From NCBI RefSeq assembly GCF_054482595.1, contig NZ_CM137008.1: a stretch of 64,000 nt of DNA; one strand, given 5' to 3'. Every line of letters starts with the position of its first letter. Positions within the stretch are counted from its first letter, which is position 1. Both the position numbers and the translations under genes were made by a program. The notes under the pieces are model-generated. The model worked only from the letters and a program-made list of their open reading frames with translations, ran no database searches and was not told where the DNA came from. Positions 17,727 through 21,892 of the stretch are shown in pieces.

Positions 17727-19673
17727 TTACTCTCGTGCCAGAGCATCTACTGGATCCAGTCGTGCCGCATTTCGTGCGGGTAACCAGCCAAATAAAATCC
17801 CGGTGGCCGTCGAGCAGAGAAACGCCAGCAGCAGTGCCAACGGTGAAAAACCAATCTCCCAACCGGGTAAGAAAAGCTGCAAGGTGAAAGCAATTAACAG
17901 TGACAGTGTTATTCCCAACGCGCCACCGACCAGGCAAACCAGTACGGCTTCGATCAGGAACTGTTGCAAAACATCGCTTGCTCGCGCACCTACAGCCATG
18001 CGAATGCCAATTTCCCGCGTCCGCTCGGTCACTGACACCAGCATAATATTCATTACACCAATACCGCCCACCACCAGCGAAATCACCGCCACCAGCGTCA
18101 GAAACAGTTGTAAAGTACGTGTGGTCTTTTCAACGGTTTTCAAGACGCCGTCCATGTTCCAGGTAAAGAAATCCTTCTTACCGTGGCGCAGTGAAAGTAA
18201 ACGCGTGAGTTGCTGTTCCGCCTCGGCGCTGTCAAATCCTTCTTTCACCCTGACAGTAATGGAGTTCAGCCACGACTGGCCCATAACTCGCCCGGACATC
18301 GTGCTGTAAGGTAGCCAGACACGCAGCACTTTACTGCTACCAAACATCGACTGTTTTTCTTCCGCCACACCAATGACTCTGGCGGGCATATTGCCGACCA
18401 GAATCACCTCGCCAACCACATCTGCTTTATGGGGGAAAAGCTGGCGGCGAGTATTACTGTCGAGAACCACGACCTGCGCACGACCGTTCAGCTGTTCCTG
18501 GTTAAAGGTGTTTCCTTCACTGAAGGTCATGCCATAGACATTAAAATAATCGCCGCTCACGCCATTGGCACTGGCAGCAACATCAACATTATTGTAACGC
18601 AGGCGCAGGTTTTGCGAGACGGCAGGTGTGGCTGAAGCGACCCACGGTTGTTTTTGGATGGCGATTAAGTCGTCGTACTTCAGCGCCTGCTGATATTGCG
18701 GATCGTCATCGCCAAAATCTTTCCCGGGGTAGACGTCAATAGTATTCGTACCAATAGAACGAATATCCGCCAGCACCATTTGTTTGGCGGCGTCACCTAC
18801 TACGACAATGGAAACCACCGACGCAATACCGATAATAATCCCCAGCATGGTCAGTAAAGTACGCATTTTATTCGCTGCCAGCGCCCGCCATGCCATCGTC
18901 AGCGCCTCGTTAAAACCGCTGGCAAACTGACGCCAGCCAGACGCCATGTTGACAACAGGTACCGTCCCGCCAGCAACATTCACTTTTTCAATGGCGGGAG
19001 GATTGCGCACAATTTCGCCGTCGCGAATTTCGATCACCCGCTCGGCCTGAGCAGCGACCTGCGGATCGTGGGTGACGATAATCACTGTATGCCCGCGGTC
19101 GCGCAGCTGATGCAGGATCGCCATCACCTCTTCGCCAGAATGGCTGTCCAGTGCGCCGGTCGGTTCATCGGCAAGAATTACCTGACCGCCGTTCATCAAT
19201 GCCCGCGCGATGCTGACGCGCTGTTGCTGACCACCCGAAAGCTGTGCCGGATAATACTCTGTACGGTCTTCCAGCCCCAGTCGTTGCAGCAACTCCTGGG
19301 CGCGAAGCAACCGCTGTTTCCGCTCAAGACCAGCATAGACGGCGGGTACTTCAACGTTCTGCTCGGCGGTTAAATGCGAAAGCAAATGGTAACGCTGGAA
19401 AATAAAGCCGAAATGCTCGCGGCGCAGTTGCGCCAGCGCATCGGCGTCCAGCGTGGCAACATCCTGACCGGCGACGCGATAGGTGCCGCTGGTGGCCTTA
19501 TCCAGACAGCCGAGAATATTCATCAGGGTCGATTTACCGGAACCCGAAGCGCCAACAATCGCCACCATCTCACCAGCATAAATATCGAGGGTGATGCCCT
19601 TCAACACCTCAACCTGCTCATCACCGGCAGGATAGCTGCGACGAATATCCTTTAATTCGAGCAAAGGCGTCAT
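17727..19673 (-). CDS. macB: Macrolide/peptide ABC exporter MacB (ATPase plus permease)
   Basis: 648-aa ORF, N-terminal NBD ([19 protein letters not shown]) fused to FtsX-like permease; overlaps macA stop by 4 bp. Confidence 0.95.
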
Positions 19674-20785
19674 TGTGCAGCTCCTGGTTTGGCCTCACCA
19701 ATCACCACTTCATCGCCCGCTTCCAGCCCTTTGACAATCTCAACATCGGTATCGTTACGTGCGCCAATCGTCACTTCACGCTCGCGTGTTTCACCATTAC
19801 GCAACAATTTGACTTTATAACGATTATCGCCAACCGGATCGCCTAACGCCGACAGAGGGATCGTCAGCACATTTTTCACATCGGTGAGCTGAATATGCAC
19901 TTGCGCAGTCATATCCAGCCGCAGTAAACCATTGGGGTTGGGGACTTCAAAACGGGCGTAATAGAAAATAGCGTCGTTAACCTTTTCCGGCGTCGGTAGT
20001 ACATCCTTGATTTGCCCCTCGTAGCGCGTCAGTGGATCGCCAAGTACCGTAAACCAGGCTTTTTGCCCCGGCTTCAGGTGGATTACATCCGCTTCAGAAA
20101 CCTGCGCTTTTACCAGCATGGTGCTCATATCTGCCAGCGTCAGAATGTTCGGTGCTTGTTGTGCGGCAATCACCGTCTGGCCTTGCAGAGTGGTGATTTG
20201 CGTGACTTCCCCGGCCATCGGGGCAACGATGCGAGTGTAATCGAGATTGGTTTTAGCCGTATCGAGAGAAGCCTGATTGCGCTTGATTTGCGCGTCAATG
20301 GTGCCAATTTGCGCCTGTTTCACAGCCATCTCCGTCGCGGCGGTGTCGAGATCCTGCTGTGAAACCGCCTGCGTTTGTGCCAGACGTTGCTGACGGGAAT
20401 ACGTCACCCGCGCCAGTTTCAGCTCCGCTTCCGCCTGCTGCCGCTGCGCGCGTAGCTCCATCAGCGTTGCTTCGACCTCCTTGATCTGGTTTTCAGCCTG
20501 TTCAGGATCAATGACCCCTAAAAGCTGGTCTTTTTTTACTTTATCGCCAATCGCCACCGACAGTGTTTTCAACTGACCGCTGACCTGCGCGCCCACATCA
20601 ACCTTACGCAGCGCGTCCAGCTTTCCGGTCGCCAGCACGCTTTGCTGTAAATCACCGGGGCGCACAATCAGTGTCTGATAAGTCGGCACGGGTGCGTTAA
20701 GAATTCTCCATAACGTAATCAGTCCGGCGATGGCTATCACCAGCGCAATAACGTAACGCTTCTTCACGGTTTTCCGCTTTTTCAT
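19670..20785 (-). CDS. macA: Membrane fusion protein MacA
   Basis: ORF matches MacA ([26 protein letters not shown]...); start trimmed from the ORF-track extension. Confidence 0.93.
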
Positions 20786-20899
20786 AAATATTCTGAATAC
20801 TCCATATGCCAATCCGGGTCATTAACTTCAACGAAATATCAACAAAACCCTAAAATTTACGTTAGTAATCACACTATTGATGTTTGGTTAAGATACGCA

Positions 20900-21892
20900 A
20901 TGGTGAAATCGACGTCATGTATAACCATTGATTTCATGAATATGTCGCAGCTAACTGAACGGACCTTTACGCCATCTGAATCTCTCAGCAGCCTGTCACT
21001 TTTTCTTAGTCTGGCACGTGGACAGTGTCGGCCGGGTAAATTCTGGCATCGCCGTAGTTTTCGCCAGAAATTTTTGCTGCGCTCGTTGATTATGCCGCGT
21101 TTAAGCGTTGAGTGGATGAACGAACTTTCCCACTGGCCTAATCTCAATGTATTGTTAACGCGCCAGCCGCGACTGCCTGTACGTCTGCATCGCCCTTACC
21201 TTGCGGCGAATCTTAGCCGTAAGCAATTGCTGGAGGCGTTACGTTACCATTATGCGTTACTCCGCGGGTGTATGTCGGCGGAAGAATTCAGCTTATATTT
21301 GAATACCCCCGGGCTGCAACTGGCGAAGCTGGAAGGCAAAAACGGCGAGCAGTTCACGCTTGAGCTGACCATGATGATCTCAATGGATAAAGAAGGTGAC
21401 AGCACAATCCTGTTCCGCAACAGCGAAGGTATTCCTCTGGCAGAGATCACGTTTACCCTGTGTGAATATCAGGGGAAAAGAACGATGTTTATTGGCGGAC
21501 TGCAAGGCGCAAAATGGGAAATCCCACATCAGGAAATCCAGAATGCGACGAAAGCCTGCCACGGGCTATTTCCCAAACGCCTCGTGATGGAAGCGGCCTG
21601 TCTGTTTGCCCAACGTTTGCAGGTAGAGCAGATTATTGCCGTCAGCAATGAAACGCATATTTACCGCAGCCTGCGTTATCGCGATAAAGAAGGCAAGATC
21701 CATGCCGATTACAACGCTTTCTGGGAATCGGTTGGCGGCGTATGTGATGCTGAACGCCATTACCGCCTTCCAGCACAGATAGCACGAAAAGAGATTGCCG
21801 AAATCGCCAGTAAAAAACGGGCTGAATACCGTCGGCGCTATGAGATGCTCGACGCTATTCAGCCACAAATGGCCACGATGTTTCGCGGTTAA
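20900..21892 (+). CDS. ybjX: VirK/YbjX family protein (DUF535)
   Basis: 330-aa ORF at the conserved ybjX position, divergent from macAB; exact start uncertain (alternative ATG at 20942). Confidence 0.85.
   Translation: MVKSTSCITIDFMNMSQLTERTFTPSESLSSLSLFLSLARGQCRPGKFWHRRSFRQKFLLRSLIMPRLSVEWMNELSHWPNLNVLLTRQPRLPVRLHRPYLAANLSRKQLLEALRYHYALLRGCMSAEEFSLYLNTPGLQLAKLEGKNGEQFTLELTMMISMDKEGDSTILFRNSEGIPLAEITFTLCEYQGKRTMFIGGLQGAKWEIPHQEIQNATKACHGLFPKRLVMEAACLFAQRLQVEQIIAVSNETHIYRSLRYRDKEGKIHADYNAFWESVGGVCDAERHYRLPAQIARKEIAEIASKKRAEYRRRYEMLDAIQPQMATMFRG

Follow-up and report, generated by a model that had tools for sequence, protein, structure and literature searches.

The short spacer between macA and ybjX raises the question of whether PhoP acts there and, if it does, on which of the two divergent genes. 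The initial annotation described it as a divergent control region in which macAB and ybjX might share a PhoP box. We conclude that the spacer very probably is a PhoP-activated promoter of ybjX, lying back-to-back with a macA promoter.

The window (the whole 64-kb stretch of DNA analysed) is E. coli chromosome: over 901 bp around the macA–ybjX spacer, many E. coli chromosomes carry exactly the same sequence (100% identity), and in the annotation of these strains a macrolide transporter subunit (macA) and a VirK/YbjX family protein (ybjX) are encoded divergently.

19670–20785, minus strand: macA coding sequence, ATG at 20783–20785 (ORF list, RefSeq annotation of identical strains, Pfam)
20936–21892, plus strand: ybjX coding sequence, 318 aa, DUF535/VirK family (Pfam PF04393 and annotation)

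The macA ATG at 20785 on the minus strand, which both the ORF list and the RefSeq annotation have, agrees with the spacer bound given initially. MacA carries HlyD-type domains (HlyD_D23/HlyD_3 in Pfam). The description of ybjX as virK-like is correct with respect to the family (PF04393, E = 2.9e-102, 342 bits for a gathering cutoff of 27), but its start at 20900 is a legacy codon and not the real one, as discussed below. The old name vboR may have been used for this gene in a paper on the E. coli Mg2+ stimulon.

PhoP boxes in the macA–ybjX spacer

A position weight matrix (PWM) of 19 columns was built from 36 DNase-footprinted Salmonella PhoP boxes (Table 1 of PMC3335776); the two Salmonella ybjX boxes were excluded from the training set against circularity. 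Both strands of the whole 64-kb window were scanned (127,964 positions). A scan of this kind had been suggested in the initial annotation as a check, and it returned matches above background in the macA–ybjX spacer, listed here together with the only candidate that had been picked by eye.

20828–20844, minus strand: distal PhoP box (predicted), TGTTGA-tattt-CGTTGA; 17.55 bits, rank 1; conserved in 11/11 loci
20875–20891, plus strand: proximal PhoP box (predicted), TATTGA-tgttt-GGTTAA; 13.62 bits, rank 7; conserved in 11/11 loci
20881–20892, plus strand: 12-mer tgtttggttaag of the initial annotation, made up of the proximal box spacer TGTTT, the second half-site GGTTAA and one extra base

The best match among the 127,964 positions is TTGTTGATATTTCGTTGAA (20827–20845, minus strand), and the seventh is CTATTGATGTTTGGTTAAG (20874–20892, plus strand). 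Both are direct repeats of hexamers with a 5-nt gap, and both scores lie within the training range of 2.69–22.31 bits (median of the 36 training boxes, 14.19 bits). The Salmonella ybjX boxes, which the matrix had not been trained on, reach 17.90 and 13.16 bits. The distal box is reversed relative to ybjX and points to macA; a gap of 30 nt separates it from the proximal box. Dinucleotide shuffles of 20786–20935 rarely reproduce these values: among 5000 shuffled sequences, nine attain the top score and six hold two sites of at least 13.62 bits.

Each box has exactly three mismatches to the consensus (T/G)GTTTA-N5-(T/G)GTTTA. At this stringency (KGTTTA-N5-KGTTTA with up to three mismatches) the consensus is non-discriminating, with 202 matches in the window against 135 expected, which is why the boxes could not be recognised by eye. 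The 12-mer offered as a weak direct-repeat candidate is present, but it is out of register, its true partner half-site being TATTGA at 20875–20880, and the stronger box on the macA-oriented strand was overlooked. The earlier negative call on a convincing PhoP site has to be given up, as the spacer holds two sites ranking first and seventh in the 64-kb window that shuffled sequences seldom match. The E. coli ybjX sites also escape the general PhoP matrix (Harari et al. 2010). Non-canonical PhoP boxes of this kind are missed by eye with the consensus and easily found with a weight matrix combined with conservation.

Conservation was assessed with the help of a scan of species-representative genomes for YbjX, which returned 13 loci, Salmonella not among them; for Salmonella, the comparison used solely the boxes as given in PMC3335776. 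After exclusion of two Massilia loci of 30% identity, 11 usable Enterobacteriaceae loci remained, from Escherichia species, from Citrobacter and from two distant genomes of the family (YbjX identity 48%). In all 11 of them, the two top PWM matches ahead of ybjX agree in orientation and in their start-to-start offset of 47 nt, although the proximal site is weak (8.8 bits) in one of the two distant loci. A MAFFT alignment of the Escherichia and Citrobacter sequences keeps ATTGAT-TTT-GTTAAG and TGGTGAAATC, while the flanks diverge. In a fixed-register alignment of 12 sequences, 22 of the 32 half-site and −10 columns are invariant versus 1 of the 66 other columns (Fisher p = 3e-13). Since PWM matches served as anchors for the two most distant loci, the box conservation there is partly circular, but the constant offset and the conserved −10 are not. 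With Escherichia and Citrobacter alone, the corresponding figures are 27/32 and 23/66 (p = 3e-6). Of 5426 complete E. coli genomes, 5424 carry the 83-bp core (20827–20909), 3266 of them in identical form; the core of K-12 is identical as well. The two boxes, their significance, geometry and conservation, and the absence of a −35 element described below are results computed here.

The spacer is AT-rich (33% GC), and AT-rich DNA elsewhere in the window also attracts matches, for example at 36204–36367 within an island of 28–37% GC; together with the 202 hits of the plain consensus, this could suggest that the PhoP-like sites are chance products of base composition with no regulatory function. 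We give this explanation next to no credence. The shuffles that preserve dinucleotide composition rarely reach the observed scores (9/5000 for the top score, 6/5000 for two sites); the sequence, orientation and 47-nt offset are kept across genera while the flanks diverge; and published mutagenesis of the boxes alters expression, by which a chance origin is effectively refuted.

The ybjX promoter and its start codon

The following features lie downstream of the proximal box. The Shigella flexneri data on ybjX and macA come from PMC12562796, published in 2025.

20901–20909, plus strand: extended −10 of the ybjX promoter, TG-g-TGAAAT (hexamer 20904–20909, TG 20901–20902), overlapping the legacy ATG at 20900–20902
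20917–20918, plus strand: ybjX transcription start, transferred from Shigella (PMC12562796), where the published statements differ by one base
20936–20944, plus strand: functional ybjX start codons ATG-AAT-ATG, Met13/Met15 of the legacy protein (Shigella mutant, primer match, PGAP)

Between the end of the proximal box (20891) and the start of the −10 hexamer (20904) there are 12 nt, and the box occupies the −35 position. The motif TG-n-TG(A/T)AAT is kept in 12/12 aligned sequences, and the best −35 candidate of this promoter agrees with the consensus at only 2 of 6 positions. A sigma-70 consensus scan of 20600–21100 found no promoter in that interval, a result that fits activator-dependent promoters and is uninformative on its own. 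A direct box placed 12 nt from the −10 instead of a −35 element, with a reverse box 30 nt upstream, corresponds to architecture II, which has been assigned to Salmonella ybjX, where both boxes were footprinted (Zwir et al. 2012, PMC3335776). Mutation of the Salmonella proximal box, GTATTGACGATTGGTTAAT, abolished ybjX expression, and mutation of the distal box, TTGTTTAGATACGGTTTAC, which is reverse and lies 30 nt upstream, decreased it more than 8-fold (PMC3335776).

The Salmonella enterica gene (also named somA) is the orthologous locus and resembles the E. coli one closely: it has a (T/C)ATTxA-N5-GGTTAA direct box 12 nt upstream of the −10, a second, reverse box 30 nt further upstream, and nearly identical PWM scores (E. 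coli 13.6 versus 13.2 bits and 17.6 versus 17.9 bits). It differs in the half-sites of the distal box (TGTTTA/GGTTTA versus TGTTGA/CGTTGA in E. coli) and in the −10 (TTCAAT versus TGAAAT with an upstream TG in E. coli); in addition, the Salmonella boxes are footprinted, whereas those of E. coli are predicted from sequence.

In Shigella flexneri the correspondence extends to the DNA itself, since the primers given in PMC12562796 agree with the window everywhere except at the designed changes. The same paper describes the box TATTGA-N5-GGTTAA, the −10, a transcription start past the legacy ATG, two start codons and an overlapping macA promoter, all as seen here. The passages considered here describe the proximal box alone, whereas the distal box at 20828–20844 is added by the PWM and conservation, in line with the two-site descriptions from Salmonella and Reg-Seq. 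According to the same source, low Mg2+ induces Shigella ybjX, but not in phoP or phoQ mutants; mutation of the TATTGA-N5-GGTTAA box lowers expression; and changing TGAAAT to CGAATT abolishes promoter activity (PMC12562796). The primer used for this −10 mutagenesis equals window positions 20892–20921 apart from two designed changes. In an array of a Shigella phoPQ deletion, ybjX stood at 0.04-fold (a 25-fold drop). Salmonella ybjX, too, has been shown to need PhoP and low Mg2+ for its transcription. For E. coli K-12, Reg-Seq placed two PhoP activator sites at ybjX by motif comparison (TOMTOM E = 0.01) and identified H-NS and StpA at this promoter by mass spectrometry (PMC7567609). The dependence on PhoP and Mg2+, the effects of box and −10 mutations, the transcription start and the start codons were obtained by others on matching or orthologous DNA, and would hold for this locus by analogy.

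The pull-down of H-NS and StpA suggests another reading, namely that the sites are chiefly nucleation DNA for these two proteins and that PhoP acts only as a counter-silencer, not as an activator recruiting polymerase. The AT-rich spacer would suit it, H-NS occupancy at Salmonella ybjX varies with conditions, and the paralogous virK promoter overcomes H-NS silencing through its upstream box (PMC3335776). A promoter without any −35 and a proximal box at the class II position speak for direct activation instead, as does the loss of expression on mutation of the Salmonella proximal box (PMC3335776); counter-silencing may add to direct activation rather than replace it. We therefore consider a purely counter-silencing role unlikely and retain direct activation of ybjX by PhoP.

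In the mechanism that we propose, PhoQ would sense low Mg2+, acid pH or antimicrobial peptides, and phosphorylated PhoP would bind both direct-repeat boxes. At the proximal box (20875–20891) it would recruit sigma-70 RNA polymerase to the −35-less promoter with its extended −10, and the distal box (20828–20844), opposite in orientation and 30 nt upstream, would boost the activation. The ybjX transcript would begin at 20917/20918 and would be translated from the ATG at 20936 or 20942.

These start codons change the bounds of the spacer. The 114 bp initially assigned to it (20786–20899) match the bounds of the K-12 RefSeq record, and the ORF list contains the corresponding plus-strand frame from the ATG at 20900 to 21892, which equals the 330-aa ybjX of K-12 MG1655 in RefSeq. 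The ATG at 20900 is, however, part of the extended −10 (aTGgTGAAAT), inside the promoter, and is not the ybjX start codon. As the functional gene starts at 20936/20942, the non-coding region is 20786–20935, or 150 bp instead of 114 bp. Shigella ybjX transcription starts 18 bp past the annotated ATG, at a T, with ATGs 19 and 25 nt further downstream; only Met13/Met15 support translation, and an M13L/M15L double mutant loses YbjX (PMC12562796). The primer for this double mutant matches window positions 20921–20959 apart from the designed changes, and the PGAP annotation of a strain with identical sequence begins ybjX at 20936 (318 aa).

Comparison of the loci points the same way. The ATG at 20942 is invariant among the Escherichia and Citrobacter loci, and 20936 reads TTG in Citrobacter. 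The position of the ATG at 20900 reads ATA in E. albertii, and in the two distant loci the reading frame from this position meets stop codons after 2–3 codons. The stretch from the 20900 ATG to the downstream ATG diverges freely (E. coli MVKSTSCITIDF versus Citrobacter MVKSMRHLFIGW). The K-12 MG1655 RefSeq record still places the ybjX start within the −10 element (window 20900–20935). The 330-aa K-12 RefSeq entry should become the 318-aa or the 316-aa form; PGAP already has the 318-aa one.

The macA side of the spacer

On the opposite strand, transcription of Shigella macA starts at an A that precedes the macA ATG by 73 bp; 58 bp separate the macA and ybjX starts (PMC12562796). In the window this gives one further feature.

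20858, minus strand: macA transcription start, transferred from Shigella primer extension (PMC12562796)

Base 20858 is a T on the plus strand, that is, an A on the minus strand. The Shigella macA and ybjX promoters are described in the same paper as divergent, with partly overlapping −35 regions. If the Shigella start applies, the proximal box would cover approximately −17 to −33 of the macA promoter, overlapping its −35 region, and the distal box approximately +14 to +30. Because of these positions, PhoP occupancy is expected to hinder the macA promoter starting at 20858. This expectation agrees with an earlier Salmonella report, as cited in later papers, of macAB repression by PhoP bound to a PhoP box ahead of macA. 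In a later Salmonella study PhoP promotes macAB, and the macA start is placed within ybjX, 504 nt upstream. The literature disagrees on what PhoP does to macAB, with effects of opposite sign. Of the PhoP-controlled divergent region proposed at the outset, the PhoP control is borne out by the PWM, conservation and published experiments, and the boxes are possibly shared with macAB.

On the macA strand inside ybjX there is one sigma-70-like match, CCGACA-18-CATAAT (21278–21249), which is weak (9/12 positions). It lies roughly where the far-upstream Salmonella macA start would fall, and matches of this quality are no more numerous than chance predicts.

We tentatively suggest that the E. coli boxes may form a single bidirectional switch, in which phosphorylated PhoP (PhoP-P) turns ybjX on and shuts the sigma-70 macA promoter (20858) off, since the two promoters lie back-to-back with overlapping −35 regions. 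PhoP occupancy hindering macA would make the spacer a reciprocal switch and not a shared activator site. A comparable arrangement is present at E. coli mgtA/treR, whose divergently overlapping promoters are reportedly controlled by PhoP (Yamamoto et al. 2002). PhoP boxes lie there in a short spacer, and one regulator can activate one promoter and interfere with the other; it is another locus, however, and reciprocal control of macA/ybjX in E. coli is a proposal.

It is also possible, if doubtful, that the boxes mainly serve macAB, with PhoP repressing or activating the efflux operon, and that ybjX activation is secondary. The distal box, which is the stronger one, points to macA, and the macA −35 overlaps the proximal box (PMC12562796). 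Both Salmonella accounts could be cited in favor, the earlier one for a PhoP box upstream of macA with macAB repression and the other for PhoP-promoted macAB expression, but they contradict each other on the sign of the effect. The geometry, moreover, is exactly that of an activated ybjX promoter, with the −10 at 12 nt and 30 nt between the boxes as in Salmonella, and the array paper in which ybjX falls 25-fold in the Shigella phoPQ deletion leaves macAB unmentioned. Activation of ybjX remains the reading that we prefer.

A heat-shock promoter is a further candidate for the main control of macAB or ybjX. The consensus used for sigma-32 was CTTGAAA-N13-15-CCCCATNT; its best matches in the spacer agree at 9–10 of the 14 specified positions and are not sensibly placed, so that the spacer holds no convincing sigma-32 motif. 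Genomic SELEX with the sigma-32 holoenzyme has a peak of intensity 6.3 between ybjX and macA, and a weak sigma-32 ChIP signal is reported at ybjX, but published data show that ybjX is not induced by sigma-32 overproduction. We find it improbable that sigma-32 is the main regulator here; its control could coexist with that by PhoP.

Related promoters and other features of the window

The virK genes of Salmonella and Shigella encode a PhoP-activated DUF535 paralogue and share with ybjX the protein family, the two-box architecture II and a box at −35. They differ in the upstream box, which is direct, lies 26 nt away and counters H-NS silencing, and in being horizontally acquired or plasmid-borne and unpaired with macAB. 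Klebsiella virK is a paralogue of ~34% similarity, described in a paper without mention of macA, and was set aside as not directly relevant.

The second-best PhoP-matrix match of the window, TCTTTA-agttt-TATTTA (14.41 bits, plus strand), lies in the mdfA–ybjG spacer within 63030–63064. It is exactly 12 nt upstream of a −10-like TACAAT (63059–63064), ~130 nt before the ybjG ATG. The PmrA/BasR box has the consensus YTTAAK-N5-YTTAAK. Shifted by one base, the ybjG match reads TTTAAG-N5-TTTAAC and agrees with this consensus at 11/12 positions. In Salmonella, ybjG (mig-13) is PmrA-regulated, and according to a 2006 paper E. coli ybjG has not kept the PmrA motif.

Two other stretches of the window stand out. 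Between ybjQ and ybjP (~35420–38050), ~2.6 kb of AT-rich DNA (28–37% GC) looks like a horizontally acquired remnant and contains a pentapeptide-repeat pseudogene (36192–37427, minus strand); the three PhoP-matrix matches clustering there at 36204–36367 probably reflect base composition. Between artJ and rlmC, the minus strand carries sulfatase and PTS IIB/IIC genes (42725–45903, from the annotation of the matching strain). These genes are presumably outside the K-12 gene order between artJ and rlmC, and the stretch may be a strain-variable insertion.

The ybjX promoter has already been published, and everything reported here reproduces known work. The gene is an ancestral member of the PhoP regulon, and its promoter has been dissected in Salmonella and Shigella and, for E. 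coli, with Reg-Seq, so that little more can be gained here. If the tentative bidirectional switch is true, a segment of 64 bp would place envelope remodelling and MacAB efflux under reciprocal control.
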